Source of the DNA: Escherichia phage vB_EcoM_SCS4
DNA: 64,000 nt
Strand: one strand, 5' to 3'
Sequence record: ON506924
Part shown: one piece after another, positions 2,768 to 61,468 of the stretch
Numbering within the stretch: position 1 is the stretch's first letter
How the letters are laid out: every line of letters starts with the position of its first letter
Translations under genes and position numbers: made by a program
Notes under the pieces: generated by a model
Told to the model about the DNA's origin: nothing
Seen by the model: the letters and a program-made list of their open reading frames with translations, nothing else
The model's database searches: none

Positions 2768-4392
<1,625 letters not shown>

Positions 4393-4393
<1 letters not shown>

Positions 4394-4641
4394 TGGAAGG
4401 TTTAATTGAAGCTATTAAATCAAACGACCTCGTAGCCGCTCGTAAATTATTTGCTGAAGCCATGGCTGCAAGAACGATTGATTTAATTAAAGAAGAAAAA
4501 ATCGCTATCGCTCGTAATTTCTTAATCGAAGGTGAAGAACCTGATGACGAGGATGATGACGAAGACGAAGATAGTGATGATAAAGACGACAAAAAAGACA
4601 AAGACTCTGATGAAGATGACGAAGACGAGGATGATGAATAA
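4393..4641 (+). CDS. 67: prohead core protein gp67 (acidic C-terminal tail)
   Basis: 82-aa ORF overlapping gene 20 stop (TAATG); poly-Asp/Glu tail typical of T4 gp67. Confidence 0.9.
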
Positions 4642-5066
4642 TGCTTCTGATCCCTGAAACTCATGAATTAGTTCTCGAGAATGTCGAAGCACTTATTCCT
4701 GAAGCACAGGGTCGCTTTGACGAATTGTCTTCTGCTTTAGATAAAGACGATATAAATACAATTGTCGAGAATATGCTTGATGATGAAACTGATTTAGCGG
4801 TTGCATTAGCTTCTATTAATGAAAATATGCCGTTAAATGAGTTCATCGTTAAACATGTTTCTGCCCGTGGTGAAATTACTCGCACTAAAGATCGCAAAAC
4901 CCGCGAACGAAATGCATTTCAAACCACTGGGTTGTCTAAAGCAAAACGTAGACAAATTGCTCGTAAAGCTACCAAAACGAAGATTGCCAATCCAGCAGGT
5001 CAATCTCGTGCTCAGCGTAAGCGTAAAAAAGCTCTTAAACGCCGTAAAGCATTAGGATTAAGCTAA
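4641..5066 (+). CDS. 68: prohead core protein gp68
   Basis: 141-aa ORF in T4 position between 67 and 21; basic C-terminus. Confidence 0.88.
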
Positions 5067-5704
5067 TGAATGAACCCCAATTACTAATTGAAACTTGGGG
5101 TCAACCTGGCGAAATTATTGATGGCGTACCAATGCTTGAATCTCATGATGGAAAAGACTTAGGTTTAAAACCGGGTTTATACATCGAAGGAATATTCATG
5201 CAAGCGGAAGTCGTCAATAGAAATAAACGTCTTTATCCAAAACGTATATTAGAAAAAGCGGTAAAAGACTATATTAATGAGCAAGTTTTAACTAAACAAG
5301 CTCTCGGAGAATTAAATCATCCTCCACGCGCTAATGTTGACCCAATGCAAGCCGCTATCATTATAGAAGATATGTGGTGGAAAGGAAATGACGTATACGG
5401 ACGAGCTCGTGTTATTGAAGGTGACCATGGTCCTGGAGATAAATTAGCAGCTAATATTCGTGCCGGATGGATTCCAGGAGTTTCTTCTCGTGGATTAGGT
5501 TCATTGACTGACACAAATAAAGGTTATCGTATCGTAAACGAAGGATTCAAATTAACTGTAGGTGTTGATGCAGTATGGGGTCCAAGTGCTCCAGATGCAT
5601 GGGTAACTCCTAAGGAAATTACCGAATCACAGACGGCGGAAGCCGATACAAGTGCCGATGACGCCTATATGGCTCTCGCAGAGGCCATGAAAAAAGCGTT
5701 ATAA
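5066..5704 (+). CDS. 21: prohead core protease gp21 (212 aa)
   Basis: length and sequence match T4 gp21. Confidence 0.95.
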   Translation: MNEPQLLIETWGQPGEIIDGVPMLESHDGKDLGLKPGLYIEGIFMQAEVVNRNKRLYPKRILEKAVKDYINEQVLTKQALGELNHPPRANVDPMQAAIIIEDMWWKGNDVYGRARVIEGDHGPGDKLAANIRAGWIPGVSSRGLGSLTDTNKGYRIVNEGFKLTVGVDAVWGPSAPDAWVTPKEITESQTAEADTSADDAYMALAEAMKKAL

Positions 5705-5707
5705 ATA
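5700..5707 (+). promoter_or_regulatory. late promoter TATAAATA upstream of gene 22
   Basis: exact TATAAATA about 28 nt upstream of gene 22 ATG. Confidence 0.5.
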
Positions 5708-5734
5708 TTATTATCTAAACAACAGGACTACAAA

Positions 5735-6544
5735 ATGCTTAAAGAACAACTGATTGCCGAAGCGCAAAAAATTGATGCTTCCGTTGCTCTTGATAGTATT
5801 TTCGAATCAGTTAATATTTCTCCGGAAGCAAAAGAAACTTTCGGCACTGTATTCGAAGCTACCGTCAAGCAGCACGCCGTTAAATTAGCTGAATCTCATA
5901 TCGCTAAAATTGCTGAAAAAGCAGAAGAAGAAGTAGAAAAAAATAAAGAAGAAGCCGAAGAAAAAGCCGAGAAGAAAATCGCTGAGCAAGCTTCTAAATT
6001 CATTGACCATCTTGCGAAAGAATGGCTCGCTGAAAATAAATTAGCAGTTGATAAAGGCATCAAAGCCGAACTGTTTGAATCCATGCTTGGTGGATTAAAA
6101 GAGCTCTTTGTTGAACACAACGTTGTTGTTCCAGAAGAATCAGTTGATGTTGTAGCTGAAATGGAAGAAGAGCTGCAAGAACATAAAGAAGAATCAGCTC
6201 GTCTGTTCGAAGAACTCAATATGCGCGACGCATATATCAATTATGTGCAGCGTGAAGTGGCATTGAGCGAAAGTACTAAAGATCTGACTGAGTCTCAAAA
6301 AGAAAAAGTCTCTGCTCTGGTCGAAGGTATGGATTATTCAGATGCATTCTCAAGTAAATTGAGTGCCATCGTAGAAATGGTGAAGAAGTCTAATAAAGAT
6401 GAAAGCACTATTACTGAGGGTATAAATACTCCTGATACTGAAGCAGCCGGACTGAATTTCGTCACTGAAGCTGTAGAAGATAAAGCTGCACCTGGTGCAG
6501 AAGATATTGTAAGTGTATATGCGAAAGTCGCATCTCGTTTCTAA
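5735..6544 (+). CDS. 22: prohead core scaffolding protein gp22 (269 aa)
   Basis: Glu/Lys-rich coiled-coil protein of the same length and position as T4 gp22. Confidence 0.93.
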   Translation: MLKEQLIAEAQKIDASVALDSIFESVNISPEAKETFGTVFEATVKQHAVKLAESHIAKIAEKAEEEVEKNKEEAEEKAEKKIAEQASKFIDHLAKEWLAENKLAVDKGIKAELFESMLGGLKELFVEHNVVVPEESVDVVAEMEEELQEHKEESARLFEELNMRDAYINYVQREVALSESTKDLTESQKEKVSALVEGMDYSDAFSSKLSAIVEMVKKSNKDESTITEGINTPDTEAAGLNFVTEAVEDKAAPGAEDIVSVYAKVASRF

Positions 6545-6562
6545 TTTTAAAGGTTAACACAA

Positions 6563-8128
6563 ATGACTATCAAAACTAAAGCTGAACTTTTGAACAAATG
6601 GAAGCCATTACTGGAAGGTGAAGGTTTACCGGAAATTGCTAATAGCAAACAAGCGATTATCGCTAAAATCTTTGAAAACCAGGAAAAAGATTTCCAGACA
6701 GCTCCAGAGTACAAAGACGAAAAAATCGCTCAGGCGTTCGGTTCTTTCTTAACAGAAGCTGAAATCGGCGGTGACCACGGTTACAATGCTACTAACATCG
6801 CTGCTGGTCAGACTTCTGGCGCAGTAACTCAGATTGGCCCAGCTGTTATGGGTATGGTACGTCGTGCTATTCCTAACCTGATTGCTTTCGATATTTGCGG
6901 TGTTCAGCCGATGAACAGCCCGACTGGTCAGGTATTCGCACTGCGCGCAGTATATGGTAAAGACCCAATCGCTGCCGATGCTAAAGAAGCATTCCACCCA
7001 ATGTATGGTCCAGATGCAATGTTCTCTGGTCAGGGTGCTGCTAAGAAATTCCCAGCTCTGGCTGCTAGCACACAAACCGTTGTAGGTGATATCTATACTC
7101 ACTTCTTCCAGGAAACTGGTACTGTGTATCTGCAGGCTTCCGCTGTAGTAACAATCGATGCTAGTGCATCTGACGCAGCTAAATTAGATGCTGAAATTAA
7201 GAAACAAATGGAAGCTGGCGTACTGGTAGAAATCGCTGAAGGTATGGCTACTTCTATCGCTGAACTTCAGGAAGGTTTCAACGGTTCTACCGATAACCCA
7301 TGGAATGAAATGGGCTTCCGTATCGATAAACAAGTTATCGAAGCTAAATCTCGTCAGCTGAAAGCTGCTTACTCTATCGAATTAGCACAAGACCTCCGCG
7401 CTGTTCACGGTATGGATGCTGATGCTGAACTGTCTGGTATTCTGGCTACCGAAATCATGCTGGAAATCAACCGTGAAGTTGTTGATTGGATTAACTACTC
7501 AGCTCAGGTTGGTAAATCTGGTATGACCCTGACTCCAGGTTCTAAAGCTGGTGTATTTGACTTCCAGGACCCAATCGATATTCGTGGTGCTCGTTGGGCA
7601 GGTGAATCCTTTAAAGCTCTGTTGTTCCAGATTGACAAAGAAGCAGTTGAAATTGCTCGCCAGACTGGTCGCGGCGAAGGTAACTTCATTATCGCTTCCC
7701 GTAACGTAGTTAACGTTCTGGCTTCAGTTGATACTGGCATTTCTTATGCTGCACAGGGTCTGGCTACCGGCTTCAACACTGATACTACCAAGTCAGTATT
7801 TGCTGGTGTTCTGGGTGGTAAATACCGCGTATATATCGACCAGTATGCTAAACAGGATTATTTCACTGTAGGTTATAAAGGTCCGAACGAAATGGATGCT
7901 GGTATTTACTATGCTCCATATGTAGCTCTGACTCCGCTGCGTGGTTCCGATCCGAAGAACTTCCAACCGGTAATGGGATTCAAAACTCGTTACGGTATCG
8001 GTATCAACCCATTTGCAGAATCCGCTGCTCAGGCTCCGGCTTCTCGCATCCAGAGCGGTATGCCTTCTATTCTGAATAGCCTTGGTAAAAACGCTTACTT
8101 TAGACGTGTATATGTTAAAGGTATCTAA
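6563..8128 (+). CDS. 23: major capsid protein gp23 (521 aa precursor)
   Basis: translation MTIKTKAELLNKWKPLLEGEGLPEIANSKQ ... RRVYVKGI matches T4 gp23. Confidence 0.97.
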   Translation: MTIKTKAELLNKWKPLLEGEGLPEIANSKQAIIAKIFENQEKDFQTAPEYKDEKIAQAFGSFLTEAEIGGDHGYNATNIAAGQTSGAVTQIGPAVMGMVRRAIPNLIAFDICGVQPMNSPTGQVFALRAVYGKDPIAADAKEAFHPMYGPDAMFSGQGAAKKFPALAASTQTVVGDIYTHFFQETGTVYLQASAVVTIDASASDAAKLDAEIKKQMEAGVLVEIAEGMATSIAELQEGFNGSTDNPWNEMGFRIDKQVIEAKSRQLKAAYSIELAQDLRAVHGMDADAELSGILATEIMLEINREVVDWINYSAQVGKSGMTLTPGSKAGVFDFQDPIDIRGARWAGESFKALLFQIDKEAVEIARQTGRGEGNFIIASRNVVNVLASVDTGISYAAQGLATGFNTDTTKSVFAGVLGGKYRVYIDQYAKQDYFTVGYKGPNEMDAGIYYAPYVALTPLRGSDPKNFQPVMGFKTRYGIGINPFAESAAQAPASRIQSGMPSILNSLGKNAYFRRVYVKGI

Positions 8129-8154
8129 TCTCTAACGATAGAAACACAATTTTA

Positions 8155-8172
8155 GGGAGCCTTCGGGCTCCC
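8155..8172. terminator. bidirectional hairpin GGGAGCC-TTCG-GGCTCCC between gene 23 (+) and segD (-)
   Basis: perfect 7-bp stem with UUCG loop followed by T-run; seen in sequence. Confidence 0.65.
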
Positions 8173-8177
8173 TTTTT

Positions 8178-8849
8178 CTATTTTATACGATAGCAATCAG
8201 GCATATCATCCGCATTTATCCAATTGCGAATAGTTTTAGGACTAACTTTAAAATGCTCCGCTGCGTAATCAGGATTATCAAATTTAACGCCCTTTATACA
8301 TATTGGAATAAATTTTTTAATACCACCAAGTTTTTCAGAAATAGCTTTACGATGTGAAATCGATATAGGTTTATTTTTTCGTGGATGAACATGTGTTTTA
8401 TAATATTCATTGCGCCCTTTAACTCGCTTCGCAATAGTTTCATCAGATTGCTTAACGCCTGTTTTTGCCTTTGATATTTTTCGTTTAGCTTCCACAGTCA
8501 TTCCTTCTTTTGTTCGTATTGATAACATATTACGATATGAAGGATCTTGCAAATGAACTATAACTGGATTTCCTCTGCCACCAATAGCAGCATTATAGGT
8601 ATCAGTTCTCATAACGAATTCCTCATTGACTAGTAAAGCTTCCATTTTATACATCTCCTCAGATGAGGAGAAAGAATAAAGAATTTCTTTTTTAAAGTTA
8701 TGAATACCATATTTTTTGATGGATTTTTTGATGTTTACGCCAGAACCCATATAACCATCGTTTTCGTCAAGAGTAGCATGAGCTCCGATGTAAATTTTTC
8801 CATTGATGATATTAGTAATTTGATATATTAAATATTTCATTTTAAACAT
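8178..8849 (-). CDS. segD: GIY-YIG homing endonuclease SegD
   Basis: GIY-YIG motif (IYQITNIINGKIYIGAH) at N-terminus; lies between genes 23 and 24 as in T4; start chosen at the internal Met that gives 223 aa (maximal ORF extends to 8879). Confidence 0.8.
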   Translation of the reverse strand: MFKMKYLIYQITNIINGKIYIGAHATLDENDGYMGSGVNIKKSIKKYGIHNFKKEILYSFSSSEEMYKMEALLVNEEFVMRTDTYNAAIGGRGNPVIVHLQDPSYRNMLSIRTKEGMTVEAKRKISKAKTGVKQSDETIAKRVKGRNEYYKTHVHPRKNKPISISHRKAISEKLGGIKKFIPICIKGVKFDNPDYAAEHFKVSPKTIRNWINADDMPDCYRIK

Positions 8850-8904
8850 CGCTCCGTTTGTATATGAATATAATATCATATTACTTTGGTCTTGTAAATA
8901 ACTT

Positions 8905-8912
8905 TATAAATA
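8905..8912 (+). promoter_or_regulatory. late promoter TATAAATA upstream of gene 24
   Basis: exact TATAAATA about 28 nt upstream of gene 24 ATG. Confidence 0.5.
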
Positions 8913-8939
8913 GTATTATATTTCAACAAGGAAAATACA

Positions 8940-10223
8940 ATGGCTAAAATCAACGAACTTCTGCGCGAATCAACAACAACGAATAGCAACTCAATCGGTC
9001 GCCCAAATCTCGTTGCTTTGACTCGCGCTACCACTAAATTAATATATTCTGACATTGTAGCAACGCAAAGAACTAATCAACCTGTTGCTGCTTTTTATGG
9101 TATCAAATACCTTAACCCAGACAATGAATTTACATTTAAAACTGGTGCTACTTACGCTGGCGAAGCTGGATATGTAGACCGAGAACAAATCACAGAATTA
9201 ACAGAAGAGTCTAAATTAACTCTCAATAAAGGCGATTTATTCAAATATAATAATATCGTTTATAAAGTATTAGAAGATACTCCATTTGCTGATATTGAAG
9301 AAAGCGATTTAGAATTAGCTCTTCAGATTGCAATTGTTCTTTTAAAGGTTCGTCTATTTTCTGACGCAGCGTCAACAAGCAAATTTGAAAGCTCTGATAG
9401 CGAAATTGCGGATGCTAGATTCCAGATTAATAAATGGCAAACCGCAGTTAAATCTCGTAAACTTAAAACTGGTATCACAGTTGAATTAGCACAAGATTTA
9501 GAAGCAAATGGATTCGATGCTCCTAATTTCTTGGAAGATTTGCTTGCAACTGAAATGGCGGATGAAATTAATAAAGATATTCTGCAGTCTTTGATTACAG
9601 TATCAAAACGCTATAAAGTTACAGGAATTACTGATAGTGGATTCATCGATTTGAGTTATGCATCTGCTCCTGAAGCTGGTCGTTCATTATACCGAATGGT
9701 ATGTGAAATGGTTTCGCATATCCAAAAAGAATCAACTTATACAGCAACGTTCTGTGTTGCTTCAGCTCGTGCTGCTGCGATTCTTGCTGCATCAGGTTGG
9801 TTAAAACATAAACCAGAAGATGATAAATATCTTTCACAAAATGCCTACGGGTTCTTAGCTAATGGTTTACCGCTTTATTGCGATACTAACAGCCCATTAG
9901 ATTATGTAATCGTTGGCGTAGTAGAAAATATCGGTGAAAAAGAAATTGTTGGTTCAATTTTCTATGCTCCGTATACAGAAGGTCTTGACTTAGATGACCC
10001 TGAACATGTGGGTGCATTTAAAGTTGTTGTTGATCCAGAAAGCTTACAACCGTCTATCGGTTTATTAGTTAGATATGCTTTATCAGCAAATCCTTATACT
10101 GTAGCAAAAGATGAAAAAGAAGCAAGAATAATTGACGGTGGAGACATGGATAAAATGGCAGGTCGTTCAGATTTGTCTGTTTTATTAGGTGTTAAATTAC
10201 CAAAAATTATTATTGATGAATAA
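8940..10223 (+). CDS. 24: capsid vertex protein gp24 (427 aa)
   Basis: length and sequence match T4 gp24 (gp23 paralogue). Confidence 0.95.
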   Translation: MAKINELLRESTTTNSNSIGRPNLVALTRATTKLIYSDIVATQRTNQPVAAFYGIKYLNPDNEFTFKTGATYAGEAGYVDREQITELTEESKLTLNKGDLFKYNNIVYKVLEDTPFADIEESDLELALQIAIVLLKVRLFSDAASTSKFESSDSEIADARFQINKWQTAVKSRKLKTGITVELAQDLEANGFDAPNFLEDLLATEMADEINKDILQSLITVSKRYKVTGITDSGFIDLSYASAPEAGRSLYRMVCEMVSHIQKESTYTATFCVASARAAAILAASGWLKHKPEDDKYLSQNAYGFLANGLPLYCDTNSPLDYVIVGVVENIGEKEIVGSIFYAPYTEGLDLDDPEHVGAFKVVVDPESLQPSIGLLVRYALSANPYTVAKDEKEARIIDGGDMDKMAGRSDLSVLLGVKLPKIIIDE

Positions 10224-10229
10224 AGCAAA

Positions 10230-10245
10230 GGGACCTTTCGGTCCC
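10230..10245. terminator. hairpin GGGACC-TTTC-GGTCCC followed by T-run, between gene 24 and rnlB
   Basis: seen in sequence between convergent genes. Confidence 0.6.
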
Positions 10246-10252
10246 TTTTTAT

Positions 10253-11257
10253 TTAACTTACCAATTCAATCCAAGCCGGACGAAGTACATCTTGTACCAT
10301 TTTAACTAATTCCTTCTTAATCAAAGAAGGATTATCCGCTTGAGTTAGAATAATACCTTCACGAGAAGTTTCTTCCAAAATATCTTGAACAGTTAGTCCC
10401 ATCACCTTTCCAAAATCTTTAGGACCAATTTCGCCAATTTTAGAAATAACGTTATTTACCCGGTTCAGTGTAACGTAACAAGCTAAAATCCCCACCAATT
10501 TGTTATCAGCTTCTGACAGTTCAACTTTAGCTTTAATAGGCTTATCAGACTTTTTCTTTTCACTAAATTTAGAGTTCTTGCATTTAATCGCCACACGATT
10601 GCGATTAGGCAGCCAAGAAGGATAACAAGGTTTCAATACATATCCTTCAGCAGTAAATACTTCGCCTTTTGCTTCGGCATTCCAAATGCATTTATTTGCA
10701 TCAACTAATCCGGCATGGTCTACTGTAAAATTATAATCTTGGACGACAGAATCTAAATCATTTGGCAATTTAATAAGCTCTTCAAATTTACCGCGACCTA
10801 AAAGTGGAGCCATTTTAAATTTAAACGTATTACAGAATGATTCCATCATATAATCATCGACATAAGTCACATCACCACTTTCTGTAGTAACAATAATGTC
10901 AAATACATAAAAATCTTTATCACCATAATCGACATTCTTCTGAATGCCAGGTCCAGCAAATTCGCCAAAGACTTGATAAGATACAACTGCCGAAGTTTCC
11001 ATAATATCTTGTACTGCTTTAATGGAATCAGCGTAATTCTTTAGAATAATTTCATACCCAAAGAAATCTTCAGCAGGAAGAATAGGACCAGTACGTTTAG
11101 CGCAAGTCACTTTATCGCGTTCAATAATCAGTGAGAAATTTGTGCCATGAATCTTTTCACGAGCTACCCATTCGCCGCCAGTCAATCCTAAGCTGTAAAG
11201 TTTTTCAATGAATTTAGAATTGTAATGATTTTCAAGACTGCTATACTTTTTAAACAT
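10253..11257 (-). CDS. rnlB: RNA ligase 2 (334 aa)
   Basis: translation [43 protein letters not shown] (ligase KxHG motif) matches T4 Rnl2. Confidence 0.95.
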
Positions 11258-11747: not shown

Positions 11748-11816
11748 GTTATCGAGTTGGTGCCATTATATACATCATTTTCTGAGTGTGTTTTGTGTGC
11801 TTTTAAAATGAAGAAA

Positions 11817-11830
11817 GGGGCCGAAGCCCC
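11817..11830 (-). terminator. hairpin GGGGC-TTCG-GCCCC (minus-strand sense) downstream of hoc
   Basis: perfect GC stem and UUCG loop seen in sequence. Confidence 0.55.
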
Positions 11831-11836
11831 TTATGA

Positions 11837-12034
11837 TTATGGATAGGTATAGATGATACCAGTTTCTAAAGCAGTTTTATGAATGATATATCCATTACGT
11901 GATTCTTGGACATCAACTTCTGGATAGTCTTTCATCATCTTCTGAAGAGTGTAACGATGCAGGTAGTATTTACTATCTGGATCTTCAGTTTTCCAATCTT
12001 TACCTTCTTCAGTCATTTTTTGGATTTCATCCAT
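11837..12034 (-). CDS. hoc: Hoc C-terminal capsid-binding segment (65 codons) in frame downstream of the TAG
   Basis: MDEIQKMTEEGKDWK ... IIYTYP matches the C-terminus of T4 Hoc; 305 + 1 + 5 + 65 = 376 codons, the T4 Hoc length. Confidence 0.7.
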   Translation of the reverse strand: MDEIQKMTEEGKDWKTEDPDSKYYLHRYTLQKMMKDYPEVDVQESRNGYIIHKTALETGIIYTYP

Positions 12035-12049
12035 AACCCACCAACCGCA

Positions 12050-12967
12050 CTAGATGTAAGCTGAGCTACGGTGTGGAAGAGGATGAACATAAGGTAATTC
12101 ACCTTCTGGTTCTGGAGCAACTTTATCAGTTACCTGAACTTGACCTGTGGCTTTAACTGTTTTACTATCATAGTCAGTTGCTGTAACGACAGCAGTAACT
12201 TCAATAGTTTGACTTCCAATAGATGAGGTATCAACAGTATATACGTTAGTTGACCCTTCCACAGGAGAAGAATCTTTCTTCCATGAGTAAGTAATTTGTG
12301 CTGCTTCAGGTGCGCCAGTAACATTAGCAGTAAATGTAGCCGAAGTATCTTGCTGAACATTAATAGAAGGAGGAGTCAATGTAACCTGTGGATTCATTGT
12401 CTTCTTATTAACTGTCAATGATACTTCATTGGAAGTAACTTCTTTTGCATCATAATCTGTCGCGGTTACTTGAGCCACACACTTAATTGTTTTAACTCCG
12501 CTTGTGGTAGGAGTGTAATTGAATGTAGCAGAAGTTGCTTCGCCCACAGGAGAACCGTCAACGTACCATTGATACGTAGCAGATGCACCTGGTGGCTGCG
12601 AAGCTAAGGCAGCGGTAAATTCAATAGCTGTTCCAATTACTCCAGCGTCAGGGCTATTAGGAGTTACAGCTAGGGTAGTCGTTTGTGTCTTATTTTGAAC
12701 TGTGATAGTTGTAGAAGCTTCTGCTGTTTCAGCTTCAGCTTCTGGAACTGGGTTTGTTGCAACTACTTTAATAGTCTTTTGACCGGCAGGTCCTTTTAGT
12801 ACATAGCTAAAAGTTGCTGACGTTTCTTCCTGCGGAGCGTCGTCTACAGTCCAAGCATATGTAATAGGTCCATCTCCAGTTTGACCACTGGGTGTAGCAG
12901 TAAACTGCTGAGTCTGATCTATAACTCCAGTAGGTGTTTTAGGAGTTATATCAACGGTAAAAGCCAT
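12050..12967 (-). CDS. hoc: Hoc outer capsid protein, N-terminal 305 codons (Ig-like domains), ending at an in-frame TAG
   Basis: translation matches T4 Hoc; frame stops at TAG (minus-strand codon at 12052-12050) and continues in the same frame into the 11837-12034 ORF. Confidence 0.85.
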   Translation of the reverse strand: MAFTVDITPKTPTGVIDQTQQFTATPSGQTGDGPITYAWTVDDAPQEETSATFSYVLKGPAGQKTIKVVATNPVPEAEAETAEASTTITVQNKTQTTTLAVTPNSPDAGVIGTAIEFTAALASQPPGASATYQWYVDGSPVGEATSATFNYTPTTSGVKTIKCVAQVTATDYDAKEVTSNEVSLTVNKKTMNPQVTLTPPSINVQQDTSATFTANVTGAPEAAQITYSWKKDSSPVEGSTNVYTVDTSSIGSQTIEVTAVVTATDYDSKTVKATGQVQVTDKVAPEPEGELPYVHPLPHRSSAYI

Positions 12968-14326: not shown

Positions 14327-15835
14327 ATGGACATTAAAGTACATTTTTATGATTTTAGTCACGTGAGAATTGATTGTGAAGAAAGTACATTTCATGAACT
14401 CCGAGATTTCTTTAGCTTTGAAGCTGATGGATATCGTTTTAATCCGAAGTACAGATATGGCCACTGGGATGGACGAATCCGTCTGTTAGATTATAATCGT
14501 CTTCTTCCATTCGGCTTAGTCGGGCAAATTAAAAAATTCTGTGATAACTTTGGCTATAAAGCCTGGATTGACCCGCAAATTAACGAAAAAGAAGAATTAT
14601 CAAGAAAAGATTTTGATGAATGGCTTTCTAAATTAGAAATCTATTCAGGAAATAAAAGAATTGAACCACACTGGTATCAAAAAGATGCAGTGTTCGAAGG
14701 ATTAGTTAATCGTCGTAGAATTCTTAATCTTCCAACATCCGCTGGTAAATCATTAATTCAAGCTTTGCTTGCGCGATATTATTTGGAAAATTATGAAGGT
14801 AAAATTCTTATCATTGTTCCAACAACTGCCTTAACAACTCAGATGGCTGATGACTTCGTCGACTATCGTCTATTCAGTCATGCAATGATAAAGAAAATTG
14901 GTGGCGGAGCATCAAAAGATGATAAATATAAAAATGATGCACCAGTCGTTGTTGGTACATGGCAAACTGTAGTAAAACAACCGAAAGAATGGTTCTCACA
15001 ATTTGGAATGATGATGAATGATGAATGCCATCTTGCTACAGGAAAAAGTATTTCATCTATCATATCAGGTTTAAATAACTGCATGTTCAAATTCGGTTTG
15101 TCTGGTTCATTACGTGATGGCAAAGCCAATATCATGCAGTATGTTGGAATGTTTGGCGAAATATTTAAGCCAGTAACGACTTCTAAGTTAATGGAAGATG
15201 GACAAGTAACTGAGCTAAAAATTAATAGTATTTTTCTTCGCTATCCCGATGAGTTCACTACTAAATTAAAGGGAAAAACTTACCAAGAAGAAATAAAAAT
15301 TATTACTGGGCTCAGTAAAAGAAATAAATGGATCGCTAAATTAGCTATTAAGCTTGCGCAAAAAGATGAAAACGCTTTTGTCATGTTTAAACATGTATCG
15401 CATGGTAAAGCTATTTTCGATTTAATTAAAAATGAATACGATAAAGTTTATTACGTATCAGGGGAAGTTGATACCGAAACACGCAATATAATGAAAACCT
15501 TAGCTGAAAATGGTAAAGGAATAATTATAGTAGCGAGTTATGGCGTATTTTCTACTGGTATTTCAGTTAAAAATCTGCATCACGTTGTTTTAGCGCACGG
15601 TGTTAAATCAAAAATCATTGTATTACAAACAATCGGTCGTGTATTACGTAAGCATGGTTCTAAGACAATAGCAACAGTCTGGGACCTCATAGATGATTGT
15701 GGTGTTAAGCCAAAATCTGCTAATACTAAAAAGAAATATGTTCATTTGAACTATCTTTTAAAACACGGCATTGATCGTATTCAGCGCTACGCAGATGAAA
15801 AATTTAATTACGTAATGAAAACAGTTAATTTATAA
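14327..15835 (+). CDS. uvsW: UvsW SF2 DNA/RNA helicase (502 aa)
   Basis: Walker A (PTSAGKS) and DECH motifs; sequence matches T4 UvsW. Confidence 0.95.
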   Translation: MDIKVHFYDFSHVRIDCEESTFHELRDFFSFEADGYRFNPKYRYGHWDGRIRLLDYNRLLPFGLVGQIKKFCDNFGYKAWIDPQINEKEELSRKDFDEWLSKLEIYSGNKRIEPHWYQKDAVFEGLVNRRRILNLPTSAGKSLIQALLARYYLENYEGKILIIVPTTALTTQMADDFVDYRLFSHAMIKKIGGGASKDDKYKNDAPVVVGTWQTVVKQPKEWFSQFGMMMNDECHLATGKSISSIISGLNNCMFKFGLSGSLRDGKANIMQYVGMFGEIFKPVTTSKLMEDGQVTELKINSIFLRYPDEFTTKLKGKTYQEEIKIITGLSKRNKWIAKLAIKLAQKDENAFVMFKHVSHGKAIFDLIKNEYDKVYYVSGEVDTETRNIMKTLAENGKGIIIVASYGVFSTGISVKNLHHVVLAHGVKSKIIVLQTIGRVLRKHGSKTIATVWDLIDDCGVKPKSANTKKKYVHLNYLLKHGIDRIQRYADEKFNYVMKTVNL

Positions 15836-15847
15836 GGGCTTCNGCCC
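15836..15847 (+). terminator. hairpin GGGC-TTCN-GCCC after uvsW (contains N calls)
   Basis: stem-loop of the same family as other terminators here; ambiguous bases inside. Confidence 0.45.
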
Positions 15848-15860
15848 NTTNGANAAAAAG

Positions 15861-16091
15861 ATGTTACTAGAATTTAAACAATTTCTTTATGAAGCTTCTA
15901 TTGATGAATTTATGGGTAAAATTGCCTCTTGTCAAACATTAGAAGGTTTAGAAGAACTTGAAGCTTATTATAAGAAAAGAGTCAAAGAAACTGAATTAAA
16001 AGATACTGATGACATCTCTGTGAGAGATGCTTTGGCAGGAAAAAGAGCTGAATTAGAAAATTCAGACGATGAAGTAGAAGAAAGCTTTTAA
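15861..16091 (+). CDS. uvsW.1: UvsW.1 small acidic protein (76 aa)
   Basis: 76-aa ORF immediately downstream of uvsW as in T4. Confidence 0.8.
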   Translation: MLLEFKQFLYEASIDEFMGKIASCQTLEGLEELEAYYKKRVKETELKDTDDISVRDALAGKRAELENSDDEVEESF

Positions 16092-24740: not shown

Positions 24741-26804
24741 CTACATCTTGAACTTTTTAGACATTCCGTTGATGTTAACCAAAGAAGCCAAGATTTGAGA
24801 AACTTCGTTTTCCTCTTCTTTTGATTCTTCTACAANGAATTGATTAAATCCAGCCATTGGACGAACTTCACCAGTTTCCATTAAATGGTCGCCATCATAT
24901 ACTGATTCTTCTAATTGTTCAGAAGGAGGAACGATTGTACCTTCGATTAGATACTTGTTATAAGCAGTTTCTTTCATAAAGTACGTACTTACTTTATTAA
25001 TCTTCAGTAAAATTCCACGCGGTAGAATAACTTCAGCTTCTGATGGAAATCCTGATAAATGACCTGGAACGATAACTTTGATTCGCTCAGCTCCTTTAAT
25101 TACCATACCCACGCTAGTTTCAGCATCTTCATTGGCATATGTAGAATGACTACCCATATGCATTAAATCTTCTGCATCAACGGAACCTTCTCCTTCGCCA
25201 GAAAATACTGCGCCGGAATCATCTAGAGCCATATAGTTTTTACCATGCTCACCGAAGATATTTGGTTTAAGTGATGTCGATACGAAGTTCTTGAAATAGA
25301 ACATTTTATTTTCAATGTTATGACGCAAAGTTTTAAAGGTAACTTCTTGTCCACGGTAAAGTGTAGTTCCTGGAGGAAGAACTGATCCTTTGGCAAAGGC
25401 AGAATCTAACGTCTCGATGTGCTTAATAGCTCGTTCCATATATTCTTCACGGGTAGAATCTGGTTTACCCAAAAGGAACGAGTTCATTTCAACATATGAA
25501 TCTGCACAATAATCTTCAATTACATCAGATTCAGCCTGAGTCAGTCCTTTTGGAGTTACTTCGGTGCTTGCGTATTCATATGCCTGAGCAGCAGATTCAT
25601 TAATCAATTTATAAATGCCATTCATTACAAATTGAATAATAGCTGTCTTTTCATCTGACGTAGCTTTAGAACCTTTAACTAAATCATTNATAATTTTCTT
25701 AATAACATCAAAGCTATTAGAAATATTAATGTCAGCAAGATCGCTTAAAATTTTATCAGTTTTATAATCAAAGAATTCTTTATTCTTTAAATATTCTTGA
25801 GAACCTTGATATGTTATATCGCTCTGCAACTTGATAGATGGATCACGTAAACGTGCATGGGCTAATGCAATATGATTTCGGAAGCTTTCTAGTTCATAAT
25901 CGTTAGATTTAAAACGAGAAGCACTTCTCATACCACCGATAGCTCCTTTGCTAAAGTTTGAACCAATCTGGATAACGCCAGAGTTCATCGGACCTTCTGC
26001 TTTATATACCGGAACTTTAGATTCAAACTCTTGATATTTCTTGGCAGCGAAGCTATCACCCTGAAGTGAAGCATCAACAGTAGAATATTGAGCTTGTGCT
26101 GCTAATCGACGACTAATTTTAGTTTTCTGAATAACAGCTTGATCAGTGCGCTTATCATTTTCTAAAGCAATAGAAGCAGCAACAGCGACAGCTTTAGGAA
26201 CAGCATTACCTGTTTTAACGTCTACATAAACATCACCAACCTTTGATTCAACTTTTGTGAATAACTCAGTTGAAATAGGAGGTACACCTGGAATGTCTTC
26301 TAAATTGGCATTTTTACGGTAAACCATAATATATGCATACTTTTTATCGTAATCCCAGAGTTCCTTAAGAAGGACGTATCTGCCACCTGAACGACTACGG
26401 ATAAGTCTATCAGCAATAACTTGAATTTGTCGAGCTTGGCCAGCAGTTTTAGACTTAAGAATACGAAGCATACAAGCATCAATTTTATACTGACGCATTG
26501 TTTGCATTGCAACAGTAAAAACTGAATTGATATAATTAATTGGGCTTGGACCAAGACCTTTTAATTTAGCAATTGAACCTTTAGCAGTTAATGTAAAAGG
26601 AACAATATGCATCATTTTATCGCCCATCTTTAAATCGCGATTAGTATCACCTCCAGATGTATAGGTACATAAACGAAATCCTGGTTGTTCAATTGCATCA
26701 TCAACGTGAACTGAAAAAATTTGTGGTATTTTCTTCTTTGGATTTAAGTTTGTAATCGGAAGAGTAGTATCTTCGTCAAATAATTCTGTAATGAGTTCCA
26801 TCAT
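24741..26804 (-). CDS. alt: Alt ADP-ribosyltransferase, packaged internal head protein
   Basis: 687-aa ORF, length and position match T4 Alt (start may be the second Met). Confidence 0.9.
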   Translation of the reverse strand: MMELITELFDEDTTLPITNLNPKKKIPQIFSVHVDDAIEQPGFRLCTYTSGGDTNRDLKMGDKMMHIVPFTLTAKGSIAKLKGLGPSPINYINSVFTVAMQTMRQYKIDACMLRILKSKTAGQARQIQVIADRLIRSRSGGRYVLLKELWDYDKKYAYIMVYRKNANLEDIPGVPPISTELFTKVESKVGDVYVDVKTGNAVPKAVAVAASIALENDKRTDQAVIQKTKISRRLAAQAQYSTVDASLQGDSFAAKKYQEFESKVPVYKAEGPMNSGVIQIGSNFSKGAIGGMRSASRFKSNDYELESFRNHIALAHARLRDPSIKLQSDITYQGSQEYLKNKEFFDYKTDKILSDLADINISNSFDVIKKIXNDLVKGSKATSDEKTAIIQFVMNGIYKLINESAAQAYEYASTEVTPKGLTQAESDVIEDYCADSYVEMNSFLLGKPDSTREEYMERAIKHIETLDSAFAKGSVLPPGTTLYRGQEVTFKTLRHNIENKMFYFKNFVSTSLKPNIFGEHGKNYMALDDSGAVFSGEGEGSVDAEDLMHMGSHSTYANEDAETSVGMVIKGAERIKVIVPGHLSGFPSEAEVILPRGILLKINKVSTYFMKETAYNKYLIEGTIVPPSEQLEESVYDGDHLMETGEVRPMAGFNQFXVEESKEEENEVSQILASLVNINGMSKKFKM

Positions 26805-40128: not shown

Positions 40129-40132
40129 CTCC

Positions 40133-41311
40133 TTAAAAGTATTTTTTAAAACTCATCATAACTTTATCATCAACATCATTATCAATCTGTGCAACAAGGT
40201 AAGATGACAGTTCTACTTCTTGTGGCGCGGATTGAACATTATCAGAATTAAGATATTCACGAATCCAAGGATATGGATGTTTAACCGNAGCATCGGTAAT
40301 TGGGCATGGAAGACCGCACTGTTTCATACGAGATACAGTTAAGTAATCAATAAAGCTCCACATGCTATTTGTATTTAATCCAGGAACATCGCCATCTTTN
40401 AATAAATGAACTGCCCAATCTTTTTCTTGGCGGTTAACTTCCATGAAAATATCAACTGCTTCTTGTTCACACTCTTGAGCAATTTTAACCCATTGATCGC
40501 CATCAGTACCAGATTGAAGTTGACGAATAATATATTGGGTGCCTTTAAGGTGAAGCTGTTCATCGCGTGCAATGAACTTCATAATCTTGGCATTACCTTC
40601 CATGATTTCCATGTTCTTATGGAAGTTAAAGGTACATGCGAAAGATACATAAAAACGAATAGCTTCCAATGCGTTGATTACATGCAAACAGAGGTAAAGA
40701 GATTTCATTAGCTCACGCTTCCAATATGTCTCATGCTCAATAGTTCGGTTTAATCGAACGTCTTCGTCAGCATATTCTTTAGGTAGTTCGATATCAGCTT
40801 TAGCGTTTTCCCAATAACGAGTTTTAATCAGAACATCATCATAATAACGTCCAATGGATTCAGCACGTTTCATAATAGCTTCATCTAATACAATTTCATC
40901 AAATACCTTTGACGGATCAGTATAAAGATTTCGCATGATATGTGTATATGAACGGCTGTGAATAGTTTCACTAAAAGTCCATGTAGCAACCCATGTATCA
41001 AGGCTTGGGTCTGAAATTAATGACATAAGTACAGCAGATGGCGCGCGACCCTGAATGCTATCTAAAAGTGATTGATACTTCAGATTATTAGTAAAAATAT
41101 TTTGCTGATACTGAGGAAGCTTATTAAACTGTGCAGCATCCATCATCAAGTTTACTTCTTCAGGACGCCAAAAAAATGATAAATGATTTTCAATAAGTTC
41201 TTCAAATACTCTATGTCGTTGAATATCATNTCGAGCTAAACCCAATCCAGAACCAAAAAACATAGGTTCTTTTAAAACATCAACTGGATTTGTGTTAAAA
41301 ATTGTGCTCAT
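40133..41311 (-). CDS. nrdB: ribonucleotide reductase small subunit NrdB, uninterrupted (392 aa)
   Basis: single continuous ORF with ferritin-like RNR R2 sequence; no intron or I-TevIII ORF. Confidence 0.95.
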
Positions 41312-41362
41312 AAATTTTCCGCTTAGTTAATAGTTGGTGACTCGTCCGTGAGTCAAATTATA

Positions 41363-43627
41363 TCATAAATTACAGGATGAACAATCTTCAGCTTTTGGAG
41401 TTTCTATTTCATAATCATCAGTACCAGAACCATCGCGGGTATTATGATAATAGAAATTTTTTCCGCCAAAATACCAAAAATACAAAAGGTCATCAATCAT
41501 TATTGACATTGGAACCTTTCCTTTTGGAAAAATCTGCGGGTCATAGTATGTATTCGCCGAAGCTGATTGACAAACCCATTTCAGCATAATAGCTACCTGC
41601 GTAAGATAAGGTTTATTACCTTTCTTAGCTAATTTCCACGTATAATCATATAGGTCTATGTTATGCTCAATATTGGGCACGACTTGATTAAAGGAACCCT
41701 CTTTTGATTCTTTAACAGAGACTGGTCCACGTGGAGGCTCGATACCGTTTGTACTGTTAGAAACTTGGGAAGATGACTCACATGGCATAAGTGCTGATAA
41801 TGTGCTATTACGGATGCCAAAGAGCTTAAGGTCTTCCCGCAGCGACGACCAGTCACAAACGTATTTTGGAGCTGCGATTTGGTCAATCTTTTTATTGTAC
41901 CAGTCGATAGGTAATTCGCCTCGAGACCAACGAGTGTCTGAATAATATTCGCAAGGTCCTTTTTCTTTGGCGAGATTAATGGATGCTTTAATGAGTCCAT
42001 ACTGTAATCTCTCAAATAGTTCATGTGTTAAATCGTTGGCATCTTCATAAGAAGCAAAGTTACTTGCCAGCCAAGCTGCATAGTTTGTAACACCTACACC
42101 GAGGTTACGACGCTTTTTAGCTTTTTCTGCTTCAGGAACTGGATATCCTTGGTAATCCAAAAGATTATCAAGAGCACGAACTTGAACTTCTGCCAATTCA
42201 TTAATTTTATCTTGGTCTTGCCAATCAAAATTATCTAGTACGAATGCAGAGAGAGTACACAATCCAATTTCAGCATCAGGACTATTCACATCATTTGTTG
42301 GAATAGCAATTTCACAGCACAAGTTACTCTGACGAATAGGTGCCTTTTCACGAATAAACGGAGTATAGTTATTCGTATTATCAATGAACTGTACATAAAT
42401 CCTTGCTGTTCCTGAACGTTCAGTCATGAGCAATTCAAACAGTTCACGGGCTTTAATACGCTTTTTACGAATATTAGGGTCTTTTTCTGCCGCTTCGTAT
42501 AATTCACGGAAACGGTCTTGGTCTTTAAAATAAGAATAATAAAGCTCTCCACCCATTTCATGGGGACTGAACAAAGTAATGTAATCGTTCTTTCCAAAAC
42601 GTTCCATCATCAAATCATTCAGTTGAACACCATAATCCATATGACGAATGCGGTTTTCTTCTACGCCTTTGTTATTTTTCAAAACGAGAAGATTTTCAAC
42701 TTCCAAATGCCAAATAGGATAATAAGCAGTAGCAGCGCCGCCACGAATTCCACCCTGTGAACATGATTTAACTGCAGTCTGAAAATGTTTCCAAAAAGGA
42801 ATAACACCGGTATGGCGTACTTCACCCATGCCAATCTTAGAACCTTCGGCACGAATCATACCAACGTTAATACCAATTCCAGCACGTTTGGAGATATATT
42901 CAACAATTGAAGCGGAAGCCTTATTGATAGACTTCAATGAATCTCCTGCCTCAATAACAACACATGAACTAAACTGTCGAGTCGGAGTACGACAACCAGC
43001 CATAATAGGAGTTGGCAATGAAATCTGTCGAGTAGATACTGCTTCATAAAAACGGATAACATGTTTTAATCTATCAACAGGTTCGTCTTGATGCAATGCC
43101 ATTCCAATAGCCATAAATGCAAACTGTGGAGTTTCATAAATTTGACCAGTGGTTTTATCTTTAACTAAATATTTTTCTTTTAATTGCATCGCCCCGGAAT
43201 AAGTAAATTCCATATCCCGTTCGTGCTTAATTTTTGATTCTAAAAATGTAATTTCTTCTGCTGAATATTTTGACAATAATTCAGGGTCATATTTACCTTC
43301 ATTTACACAGTAAGAAATATGGTCAATAAATGAACGTGGTTCATACTGCCCATAAACATGCTTACGAAGAGCAAACATTAAACAGCGTGCAGCTACATAT
43401 TGATAATCAGGTTCTTCAACCGAAATAGAATTCGCAGCAGCCTTAATGACAATAGTCTGAATATCATCAGTTGTCATTCCATCACGGAGATAAGATTTAA
43501 TATTTTCATATAATTCATAAGGATCTACTGATGTTCCCTCAGCTGCCCAAGATAAAACTTTAATAATTTTTTGTGGGTCAAAGCTCTGAGAAACACCACT
43601 ACTTTTGATAACATTAATTAATTGCAT
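41363..43627 (-). CDS. nrdA: ribonucleotide reductase large subunit NrdA (754 aa)
   Basis: 754-aa class Ia RNR alpha-subunit sequence; same length as T4 NrdA. Confidence 0.97.
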   Translation of the reverse strand: MQLINVIKSSGVSQSFDPQKIIKVLSWAAEGTSVDPYELYENIKSYLRDGMTTDDIQTIVIKAAANSISVEEPDYQYVAARCLMFALRKHVYGQYEPRSFIDHISYCVNEGKYDPELLSKYSAEEITFLESKIKHERDMEFTYSGAMQLKEKYLVKDKTTGQIYETPQFAFMAIGMALHQDEPVDRLKHVIRFYEAVSTRQISLPTPIMAGCRTPTRQFSSCVVIEAGDSLKSINKASASIVEYISKRAGIGINVGMIRAEGSKIGMGEVRHTGVIPFWKHFQTAVKSCSQGGIRGGAATAYYPIWHLEVENLLVLKNNKGVEENRIRHMDYGVQLNDLMMERFGKNDYITLFSPHEMGGELYYSYFKDQDRFRELYEAAEKDPNIRKKRIKARELFELLMTERSGTARIYVQFIDNTNNYTPFIREKAPIRQSNLCCEIAIPTNDVNSPDAEIGLCTLSAFVLDNFDWQDQDKINELAEVQVRALDNLLDYQGYPVPEAEKAKKRRNLGVGVTNYAAWLASNFASYEDANDLTHELFERLQYGLIKASINLAKEKGPCEYYSDTRWSRGELPIDWYNKKIDQIAAPKYVCDWSSLREDLKLFGIRNSTLSALMPCESSSQVSNSTNGIEPPRGPVSVKESKEGSFNQVVPNIEHNIDLYDYTWKLAKKGNKPYLTQVAIMLKWVCQSASANTYYDPQIFPKGKVPMSIMIDDLLYFWYFGGKNFYYHNTRDGSGTDDYEIETPKAEDCSSCNL

Positions 43628-57525: not shown

Positions 57526-60500
57526 ATGGCTACTTTAAAACAAATACAATTTAAAAGAAGCAAAACTGCAGGTCAACTTCCTGCTGCTTCAGTATTAGCC
57601 GAAGGTGAATTGGCTATTAATTTAAAAGATAAAACAATTTTCACAAAAGATGACTCAGGCAATGTTATAGAATTAGGTTTAAAATATGGAGGAACAATTG
57701 ATGGTTCTTTAACTGTTAATGGAAATATAATTGGAAATTTAACAGGTAACGCTGCAACTGCAACGAAATTAAAAACAGCACGAAAAATTAATGGTATATC
57801 CTTTGATGGGTCAAAAGATATCACGCTAACTCCATCTGACATAAATGTCAATAGCACAACGTTTATAAAAAATAACGGCGAATTACCTGTTGACGCTAAT
57901 TTAGATGAATATGGGCCCACTGAAGAGTATCTTGGCGTTTGGTCGAAATCTACTTCAACAAATGCGCAACCGGCAAATAAATTCCCAGAAGAAAATGCCG
58001 TAGGTGTACTAGAAGTATTTGTGGCCGGTCAATTTGCTGGTACTCAGAGATATACTGTAAGATCTGGTAACGTATATGTTCGATCTTTGTCTGCTAAATG
58101 GAACGGTGTTAACGGTCCGTGGGGAGTTTGGCGTAATGTTCAAGCGTCAACTCGTCCACTTTCACAAACGATTGACCTTGATAGCTTGGGAGAATTAGAA
58201 CATTGCGGCTTATGGCGAAATAGTTCAAGTTCTATCGCATCGTTTGACCGTCATTATCCAGAAGAAGGAGCAGCCGCACAAGGATTTTTGGAAATTTTTG
58301 AGGGTGGTTTATACACAAGAACTCAACGTTATACAACTAGATTTGGTGTTGTTTATACTCGCTGTCTTGCTGCTGCATGGGATGCATCTGCGCCTAAATG
58401 GGGACCGTGGCAACAAGTCGGTAATGTCACACCGGCGACTTTCTATGACGGAGACCTGAATGATTTTAAAGCTCCTGGGTTATATAACATTTTAGGCACT
58501 GATGCCGTTATTAACTGTCCTACAGGTGAAGGTTTGCCGACTGTTATTGTTGGTTTGCTGGAAGTTAAACAGCGTGCTTCTGGCGGTGCTATTTTCCAAA
58601 AATTTACTACTGCCGGAACGGCTTCAACTACTCGCGATCGTATTTTTGAGCGTGCATATACTGGTGGTGCGTGGGGTGCATGGAACGAAGTATATACATC
58701 TTATTCTCTGCCAATTACTTTGGGTATGGGTGGTATTAAAGCTCAATTAGCGGAGTTAGATTGGCAAACCTTTGATTTTGTCCCTGGTAGTATGTTTAGT
58801 GTTCCTTTGAACAAAATAAAGAATATGCCAGCAAATATGGATTGGGGCACGATTGATGGAAACCTGGTTATGTTTTCCGTTGGTCCTAGCGAACGCACTA
58901 GCACAGGACGTACTGTTCAGATTTGGCGCGGCACCGTATCCCAGACAAACTACCGTTATTTTGTCGTTCGTGTGTTCGGTAATTCTGGAAATAGAACTTG
59001 CACAGTTCGTCGTGTTGTTCTTGAAGATGGTCGCCACACATGGACAGCTCAACAAGATTTTAATGGCGCAGTTAACTTTAACTCTACTGTTAACCTTAAT
59101 AACACTACCACATTTAAAACAGAAGTTAAATTTCGCTCATTGAATGCATTCCGTATGTATGGCGGAAAATTTGGTACATTTTTACGTAATGATGGAGAGA
59201 GTCTTTATATTCTTTCCACCGACGAAGATGATCAACATGGAAACTTTAATACAAATAGACCTTTCCGTTATGAATTAAGAACTGGTGATGTTACTTTGGG
59301 TGGTGCTAGTGGTGCTAACGTTTTAAAATTAAAACGTGATTCTCTCACCGCATTTTTTGGTGGTGATATTAACATGAAAGGCACGATGACTTTTGACGCC
59401 GGACGTTTAGGATCACGAGATTATTTTAAATTTAACCATTGGGGTGATAGTAATAATGCTCGTGATAACATTATTCAGTTAGAAGATAGCAAAGGCGTTC
59501 ATTTTTCCACTGAACGTACTTTAGCGACTGGTGCAATTAAAACTAGATTCTTTGGCGAAACATTCACTGACGGGACATTATACCTAAATCAGATGAATAA
59601 TAGTTCTGAACGATTCTCTATCAACAATTGGGGAAGTTCAGAAGTTGGTCGCGCGGCAGTATTGGAAGTCGGCGATTCCAAAGGTTATCACTTCTATACG
59701 GAACGTAGAACAGATGACACCGTTTTATTTTCTGTAGCTGGTGCTTTGACCGTGCGTGGACCTAACGGAATAACCATCAAAAACTCAACTGGTGCACGCC
59801 ATATCTGGTTTAGAGATGACAGCGAATCGGAAAAGGCTGTTATTTGGGCGACCGATGAGGGTATTTTACATATTCGCAATAACAACGGTGGACAATTTAG
59901 TCATCACTTCCAGGGCGCAATGATTAAACTGGAAGGGCGTGTTCCTTATGATGCAACAAAGGGGATTATCCGTGGTGAAGTTGATGGTGGTGCATATGTT
60001 GCATGGAGAGACCGCCCTGCTGGTTTGTTGGTTGACTGCCAGAAAAGTATTGACAGTGCTCATGCTGTTTGGAAAGCGGTTGATTGGGGGCGTCAATATA
60101 TCGCTGCTATGGACGTTCACTGTCCGGGTGATGGTAATAATACTGCGACAGCGATTCTTCATGTTCAGGCTGCTGATTATCAATTCCACGCAAGCGGAGA
60201 ATTCGTTACCAGTGGTAACGGAAACTTTAACGATGTGTATATTCGTTCTGACCGTCGTCTGAAAATTAATGTTGAAGATTATACCGGAAATGCGTTAAGT
60301 TTGATTGGTAAGCTGAAAGTGAAAACTTACGATAAAGTTAAATCTCTTAAGGACCGTGAAATTATCGGTCATGAGATTGGCATTATCGCACAGGATTTAC
60401 AAGAAATATTACCGGAAGCGGTGAAATCTTCAAAAGTTGGCAATCTTGATAATCCAGACGATGTTCTGACAATTTCTAACTCGGCAGTGAATGCTCTTTT

Positions 60501-60600
60501 AATTAAGGCTATTCAGGAAATGAGTGAAGAAATTAAAGAATTGAAAACTCCTTTCTTTACTAAAATTGCTCGCAAAATTAGTAAATATTTTAAATTCTAA
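57526..60600 (+). CDS. 37: long tail fibre distal subunit gp37 (1024 aa) with C-terminal intramolecular chaperone domain
   Basis: N-terminal part matches T4 gp37; C-terminal ~116 aa resemble the self-cleaving chaperone domain of phage fibres/endosialidases. Confidence 0.93.
60250..60597 (+). other. predicted self-cleaving intramolecular chaperone domain of gp37 (cleavage expected at Ser-Asp in YIRS|DRRLK)
   Basis: S-D dipeptide followed by a conserved-looking helical tail ([20 protein letters not shown] ...); motif recognition only. Confidence 0.5.
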
Positions 60601-60606
60601 CAACAA

Positions 60607-60621
60607 GGGGGCAACGCCCCC
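60607..60621 (+). terminator. hairpin GGGGGC-AAC-GCCCCC after gene 37
   Basis: 6-bp GC stem seen in sequence 7 nt after stop. Confidence 0.5.
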
Positions 60622-60637
60622 CTTTGGAGTATAAATT

Positions 60638-61438: not shown

Positions 61439-61468
61439 TTTGAATAAATATCCTTAAAAGGAGGGTCT

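Follow-up and report, generated by a model that had tools for sequence, protein, structure and literature searches.

A single in-frame amber codon lies within the capsid-binding domain of hoc in the genome record of Tequatrovirus ECML-134

RESULTS

The hoc locus of ECML-134

The DNA analysed here is a 64-kb stretch (64,000 nt, hereafter the window), in which the region of interest, 1,131 bp long, is a 100% match to Escherichia phage ECML-134, both in the GenBank entry JX128259.1 and in its RefSeq copy NC_025449.1; a window position is converted into a position in the ECML-134 record by adding 96000. The 99.1% identity displayed by the self match was tentatively ascribed to low-complexity masking by BLAST and to no real difference. 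ECML-134 is a Tequatrovirus whose isolation host is E. coli O157:H7. Of environmental origin (fresh and salt water), it is sold as a natural component of EcoShield, a commercial cocktail of three phages, and NC_025449 is the RefSeq record for a species of its own, Tequatrovirus ecml134. The consecutive proteins URQ05371.1 and URQ05370.1 are exactly the 305-aa and 65-aa sequences described below, and they therefore come from a further NCBI record with the same split; this record was absent, at 99% identity or more, from the phage collection searched, and it may reflect a new, independent sequencing run or a second deposit.

The features of the locus are listed in Table 1. The gene is on the minus strand, between inh and 24.3/24.2/rnlB, which is exactly the order found in T4. 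The initial annotation had called it hoc and had placed a single in-frame TAG at codon 306. The identity of the gene is borne out by a match to PHROG 1149, by its inh and 24.3 neighbours and by 86% identity to T4 Hoc, the highly immunogenic outer capsid protein P18056, and translation confirms that the TAG is the only internal stop. When this codon is read as Trp, the product aligns without a gap, from residue 1 to residue 376, with T4 Hoc (PDB 5vf3_Z and four further entries, E = 4.8e-211); a tblastn comparison of T4 Hoc with the ECML-134 frame gives 86.4% identity and 1 stop. The homology spans both sides of the TAG and, since the gapless full-length alignment continues past the stop, the interrupted frame is no chance ORF. 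At the nucleotide level, no other record exceeds 94.5% identity to the ECML-134 hoc gene. Full-length collinear homology, a string of Ig-like domains, in-frame codons for the capsid-binding residues and the gene neighbourhood of hoc are all present; what is missing, because of the TAG at codon 306, is an uninterrupted ORF that would link the capsid-binding domain with the Ig-like domains. The sequence as written shows a hoc gene with a predicted null allele, and not a functional hoc. The hairpin found just 3' of the gene looks like a putative intrinsic terminator.

Table 1. Features of the hoc locus, in window positions (the coordinates of the Ig-like domains were computed from the codon numbering)
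Feature	Position	Strand	Basis
GC-rich hairpin GGGGCTTCGGCCCC, then T-rich run, just 3' of hoc	11806..11830	-	Read from the sequence
Complete hoc frame, 376 codon positions and terminal TAA (11837-11839), interrupted once	11837..12967	-	Translation
65-codon ORF from Met312, ECML134_176 (AFO10702.1 / YP_009102651.1)	11837..12034	-	Matches phrog_21694 end to end
Codons 307-376, 70 residues (Trp309, Trp310, Gln354, ESRNG 355-359, Tyr360)	11840..12049	-	Translation; PMC10385173
Amber codon TAG, codon 306 (plus-strand CTA); wild type TGG (Trp306)	12050..12052	-	Alignment to relatives
Upstream ORF, 305 codons and TAG, predicted truncated Hoc, ECML134_177 (AFO10703.1 / YP_009102652.1)	12050..12967	-	
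Capsid-binding residues 281-305 (beta-strands 1-2; Tyr293, His295, Arg300, Tyr304), still translated	12053..12127	-	Translation; PMC10385173
Three Ig-like domains, codons 1-280, retained	12128..12967	-	Pfam; boundary residue 281 from PMC10385173

Domains on either side of the amber codon

The capsid-binding domain of Hoc consists of residues 281-376 (Fokine et al. 2023, PMC10385173). A published cryo-EM and AlphaFold model describes this domain. Contacts with gp23* are made by Tyr293, His295, Tyr304, Trp306, Gln354 and Tyr360 on the base of the beta-sheet, by Trp309 and Trp310 at the start of helix 1, and by Arg300 and His299; Glu355-Gly359 is a highly conserved Hoc motif, and Trp306, Trp309, Trp310, Gln354, Tyr360 and Glu355-Gly359 are given among the key features of the domain (PMC10385173). 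None of these listed features precedes the TAG. Trp306 and most of the other gp23*-contacting residues are at or beyond the TAG. The published boundary puts the TAG inside the capsid-binding domain, in place of a contact residue and with the loss of 70 of the 96 residues; the 305-aa product keeps the three Ig-like domains and only 25 residues of the binding domain. The initial annotation had proposed that the stop removes the capsid-binding part of Hoc, in the form of 65 codons. The first proposal agrees with the published domain as far as the nature of the segment is concerned, but the stop falls within residues 281-376 and not at the Ig boundary. The second has to be corrected: 70 codons (307-376) follow the stop, and 65 is the length of the ATG-initiated ORF that starts at Met312.

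Three Pfam families were detected, Ig_3 at 30.0-30.5 bits (cut-off 30), I-set at 25.4-27.1 (cut-off 23.7) and PKD at 25.7 (cut-off 23.5), the scores varying with the protein scanned (the 376-aa repaired protein or the 305-aa fragment). No Pfam domain was found in the 65-aa tail. PHROG 1149, 'Hoc-like head decoration', was matched by the N-terminal piece (E = 1.4e-74) as well as by the C-terminal tail (E = 2.4e-33). Codons 307-376, which in a non-suppressing host would not be translated as part of Hoc, are intact: they differ from those of relatives at 2-9 of 210 nt and contain one private change, a synonymous one. This lack of decay downstream of the TAG fits a recent mutation and a miscall equally well.

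GenBank and RefSeq already annotate two CDSs at this place, ECML134_177 (305 aa) and ECML134_176 (65 aa), and both were assigned to 'Hoc-like head decoration' by PHROGs; the ECML-134 genome paper makes no mention of hoc. The separate 65-codon CDS is probably a by-product of gene calling on a split hoc. Stand-alone Hoc fragments have a PHROG of their own, phrog_21694, and form a 16-member protein cluster. The former, also named 'Hoc-like head decoration', is a family of 66 positions that matches the stand-alone tail from Met312 over its whole length, and it seems to be composed of pieces of hoc genes that were disrupted or truncated.

Conservation of codon 306

TAG differs from TGG by one coding-strand G>A transition (window position 12051; on the plus strand, T in ECML-134 versus C in relatives), which is the only difference within the codon. 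That the wild-type codon would be TGG had been guessed beforehand, and alignment to T4 and four other relatives proved the guess right, codon 306 being TGG in five out of five (T4, SHFML-26, T4_ev240, RB14 and JLBYU24). The surroundings are well conserved: mean identity over the 121 nt around codon 306 is 98% across six phages, and the motif AYIWCGWW is kept in all 19 intact hoc loci from IMG/VR, even at 34-55% overall identity. The change from TGG to TAG is the only radical private change in ECML-134 hoc, the others being four synonymous and two missense changes, which is the pattern of a hoc null caused by a single-base stop in an otherwise intact gene.

The amber allele was not found elsewhere. 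The 81-bp segment occurs in 597 phage records, of which the two ECML-134 copies alone match at 100%, and the allele is present in none of the 595 others; it was likewise absent from IMG/VR contigs and from metagenome contigs when these were scanned for the exact pattern. The 305-aa truncated protein is encoded in the ECML-134 assembly alone. An oddity was noticed in OQ031495.1 ('UNVERIFIED: Escherichia phage MRostami-2023e'), whose hoc gene shares only 89% identity with the ECML-134 gene: 8 consecutive Ns (locus positions 2981-2988) lie exactly over hoc codons 305-307, and a further run of 62 Ns lies in Ig domain 3. The shorter run coincides with the ECML-134 amber site.

Sequence quality and private changes around hoc

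Ambiguous bases are unevenly spread over the ECML-134 record, with 44 at window positions 1134-63090 versus 1 in record positions 1-96000. They occur as single Ns, often in small clusters in or beside GC hairpins, as in GGGCTTCNGCCCNTTNGAN at 15836-15854. A mixed phage population, or polymorphic wobble sites, was considered as their source and rejected: codon positions 1, 2 and 3 are hit 7, 6 and 5 times, and 26 Ns are outside coding matches orthologous to T4, in intergenic or unassigned sequence and often in hairpins. Their distribution points to locally poor reads and not to polymorphism.

Private substitutions were counted on both sides of hoc. In the head-gene block (window 2800-10300), comparison with seven relatives gave 13 synonymous, 2 conservative nonsynonymous and 2 intergenic changes, for a total of 18 with the N at 3816; this total is in the middle of the range of the panel (11-31). 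In rnlB, 24.2, inh and uvsW, compared with five relatives, 25 synonymous and 4 conservative nonsynonymous changes were found. Random miscalls would be nonsynonymous in about 75% of cases. As the private changes are mostly synonymous, the local sequence bears the signature of evolution and not that of error, and the ratio of 38 synonymous to 6 conservative nonsynonymous changes in the 11.5 kb of flanking coding sequence, together with the mid-range private count, indicates that substitution miscalls are rare near hoc. We estimate that 4-5% of random substitutions create a stop, so that the number of error-made stops expected in 1.1 kb is far below 0.01 at any plausible rate.

Among the approximately 170 T4 orthologues in positions 1-50 kb and 96-160 kb of the record, hoc is the only one with a clean substitution nonsense codon. 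Gene 55.3 was considered as a second case and dismissed, its in-frame stop being a variant inside a terminator hairpin. Outside the window, at record positions 12,200-12,300, the gene for the RNA polymerase ADP-ribosylase, modB, carries a 7-bp tandem duplication relative to T4 (TCGGCAG TCGGCAG); it is frameshifted by this duplication and annotated as two CDSs, which makes it the second dispensable gene to show a loss-of-function lesion. The two lesions, in modB and in hoc, fit a stock accumulating loss-of-function mutations. Also split is uvsW (window 14327-16088, junction at about 15835-15860), given as 502 aa plus a 76-aa uvsW.1 versus the fused 587-aa UvsW of the T4 RefSeq entry. It was discarded as a sign of record error because PP01, RB18, AugustSocin and PhiZZ6 are annotated alike; either T4 relatives commonly have the split or an old T4 sequencing discrepancy at the hairpin has been repeated.

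Other differences from T4 were seen in the window. The interval between genes 18 and 19 (1490-2243, with one N at 1943) is about 750 bp long versus about 117 bp in T4; it is a probable insertion, possibly of a mobile endonuclease gene. Mosaic differences are present at 24750-26801, 40130-41365 and 57526-61468. Identity to T4 is only 49% for alt, and nrdB.1, mobE and segG are absent. Only over its first 66 residues does gp37 match T4, and no counterpart of T4 gene 38 is present, a pattern which suggests a different tail-fibre tip or adhesin module, possibly T2-type.

Known hoc nulls and other broken hoc genes

The closest precedent is T4 HAP1 (T4 delta-Hoc), in which a spontaneous C496T ochre mutation in hoc results in virions without Hoc (Dabrowska et al.; PMC10580926). 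In both phages a single-base transition has put a premature stop into an otherwise intact T-even hoc gene. The ochre of HAP1, at Gln166, is 44% along the gene and in the Ig-like domains, whereas the ECML-134 amber, at Trp306, is 81% along and in the capsid-binding domain; unlike HAP1, ECML-134 would still make all three Ig-like domains, as a soluble fragment. The viability of HAP1 and the absence of Hoc from its virions have been verified experimentally, whereas the phenotype of ECML-134 is deduced from its gene. Hoc/Soc display has also made use of classical T4 amber and deletion nulls (Ishii and Yanagida; Rao and Black laboratories; PMC3012670); their production, viability and infectivity are unaffected and 155 empty Hoc sites are exposed on them (PMC3012670). 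What they share with the ECML-134 amber is a null allele of a dispensable decoration protein, but they were isolated or built deliberately whereas the ECML-134 allele is in the genome of a natural isolate.

The hoc gene is also broken in five otherwise normal T4-like genomes (ACG-C40, IME537, IMG/VR L033, a contig from Logan ERR4622920, and L044), where, as in ECML-134, gene callers emit two 'Hoc-like' CDSs. The lesions are of several kinds. ACG-C40 (JN986846) and IME537 (MT179807) have an A7>A8 homopolymer frameshift around nt 475, versus a substitution in ECML-134; the Logan contig has an A6>A5 contraction just after Met312, and L033 a +1 frameshift. In L044 (ENA ERZ27277148 k141_257363, 747 bp), the hoc gene of which is closely related, GAA>TAA creates an ochre codon at Glu286, a nonsense allele of independent origin that lies at the start of the capsid-binding domain. 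The W306am allele is in none of these five broken genes. In BYEP02, a local duplication breaks hoc. The A7>A8 expansion, identical in the unrelated ACG-C40 (JN986846.1) and IME537 (MT179807.1), from Canada and China, is located in GTTAAAAAAAATC and splits hoc at codons 160-170, where ECML-134 has the interrupted run AAAACAA; its sharing points to slippage at a hot spot or else to a sequencing artefact that recurs at homopolymers.

Decoding of UAG in ECML-134

Nine tRNA genes were found by ARAGORN in the whole 166.8-kb genome (Arg-TCT, Asn-GTT, Tyr-GTA, Met-CAT, Thr-TGT, Ser-TGA, Gly-TCC, Leu-TAA and Gln-TTG), none of them with the CUA anticodon of a suppressor. The earlier assertion that full-length Hoc would depend on suppression by the host is upheld by this set. 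TAG is the ordinary terminator of 3 genes out of 77, namely segD, uvsY.-2 and frd.2, all of which end where T4 would predict, and no in-frame TAG was found in the other T4 orthologues examined. Neither a suppressor tRNA nor a conserved stop, as programmed read-through or reassignment would require, was found.

DISCUSSION

Whether UAG could be something other than a stop at codon 306 has to be considered before the origin of the codon. Reassignment of TAG to a sense codon has nothing in its favour beyond the in-frame TAG itself, and its probability is negligible: TAG terminates three genes where T4 predicts it and interrupts no other orthologue examined, which excludes it for practical purposes, and the genome lacks any tRNA with a CUA anticodon. 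A hoc gene that still works although split or recoded, either by UAG read-through or by reinitiation at Met312 to give a 65-aa tail acting with the 305-aa fragment, has somewhat more to recommend it and is still very improbable. The ATG of Met312 is 15 nt past the TAG and is accompanied by an SD-like GGUGG whose pairing energy, -5.4 kcal/mol, compares with -5.8 as the median of 74 real starts from the window and ranks in the top 6.5% of internal ATGs; moreover, the 65-aa ORF is an annotated CDS and PHROGs includes a family of such tails. But the SD-like element is just 2-3 nt from the ATG and its sequence is identical in wild-type hoc, so that it is no adaptation, and the other stand-alone tails in the databases stem from unrelated lesions or contig ends. 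The stop is conserved in no relative, the phage has no suppressor tRNA, and termination in E. coli is efficient at UAG when the next base is U, which counts against read-through. The break would also cut the beta-sheet of a single globular domain, parting Tyr293, His295, Arg300 and Tyr304 from Trp309, Trp310 and the ESRNG motif. A reinitiated tail would be devoid of beta-strands 1-2 and of several contact residues, which makes a functional two-piece Hoc unlikely.

As to how a plain stop came to be in the record, the initial annotation had offered a genuine nonsense allele, a deliberate amber marker and a base-call error. We rank the genuine allele above the base-call error and the latter above the marker, the order of the first two being one of probability. 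That the TAG is a deliberate marker, or that the phage is a laboratory T4 amber stock, can hardly be credited: ambers are classical tools of T4 genetics and hoc amber nulls exist (PMC3012670), but ECML-134 is an environmental isolate, its Hoc is 86% identical to that of T4 and its hoc gene no more than 94.5% to any record, so that it is no T4 laboratory strain, and no other gene examined has an amber codon. A base-call or consensus error, the real phage having TGG and a normal Hoc, is a distinctly more serious possibility, if the less probable of the two. The allele is a singleton, seen in no other record or metagenome; the window is far richer in ambiguous bases than the first 96 kb of the record; hoc is otherwise undamaged and its downstream domain fully conserved; and the ECML-134 genome paper gives neither sequencing platform nor coverage. 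The many Ns had indeed been put forward as a reason for doubt, and their number is confirmed; for this site, however, they carry less weight, as the nearest are at 3816 and 15843, with none in between and thus none within 3.7 kb of the TAG, and as most are in intergenic hairpins and not in ordinary coding sequence like that of hoc. The excess of synonymous over nonsynonymous private substitutions in the flanking genes also speaks against error. On balance we hold it probable that the TAG is a genuine amber loss-of-function allele, W306am (TGG>TAG), of the dispensable hoc gene in the ECML-134 stock that was sequenced.

Given a genuine W306am allele, translation in a non-suppressing host would end after Ile305 and yield a soluble protein of about 32 kDa, made of the three Ig-like domains and the first 25 of the 96 binding residues. 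Hoc attaches to expanded capsids as a monomer, at the centres of the gp23* hexamers; this fragment would be unable to dock there and the virions would be Hoc-less. In supE, supD or supF hosts, full-length Hoc would be made, with Gln, Ser or Tyr at position 306. The most likely effect of the allele, as predicted from the sequence, is therefore that of an amber null: Hoc-less capsids and a soluble Ig-domain fragment in non-suppressing hosts. Because Hoc is non-essential in culture, such an allele would be neutral while the phage is propagated in the laboratory or in industry, and a stock could become fixed for it; the viability of ECML-134 is implied by its use as a commercial preparation.

The type of event is well known and this instance of it is already visible in public annotation, so that W306am is an ordinary finding of modest significance. 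For curation, the case matters whether or not the allele is real: the two CDSs of NC_025449 propagate into downstream protein collections, and a single disrupted gene would be the better annotation of the ECML-134 locus. A real allele would mean that an FDA-cleared phage product includes one component with bare capsids; Hoc affects immunogenicity, mucus adherence and aggregation (PMC10385173, PMC10580926). Such Hoc-less capsids could also take about 155 copies of an added Hoc fusion protein.

A broader scenario can be drawn, which we regard as improbable: the amber was fixed during commercial production, making ECML-134 a naturally 'domesticated' Hoc-less T-even phage that releases a soluble three-Ig fragment at lysis, and hoc is recurrently turned off away from mucosa. 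In this scenario the free Ig fragment might have a role of its own, for instance as an antibody or glycan decoy. Taken together, the A7/A8 and A6/A5 frameshifts, the ochre allele and W306am would, if real, suggest that T4-like phages recurrently switch off hoc when they replicate away from mucosal environments.
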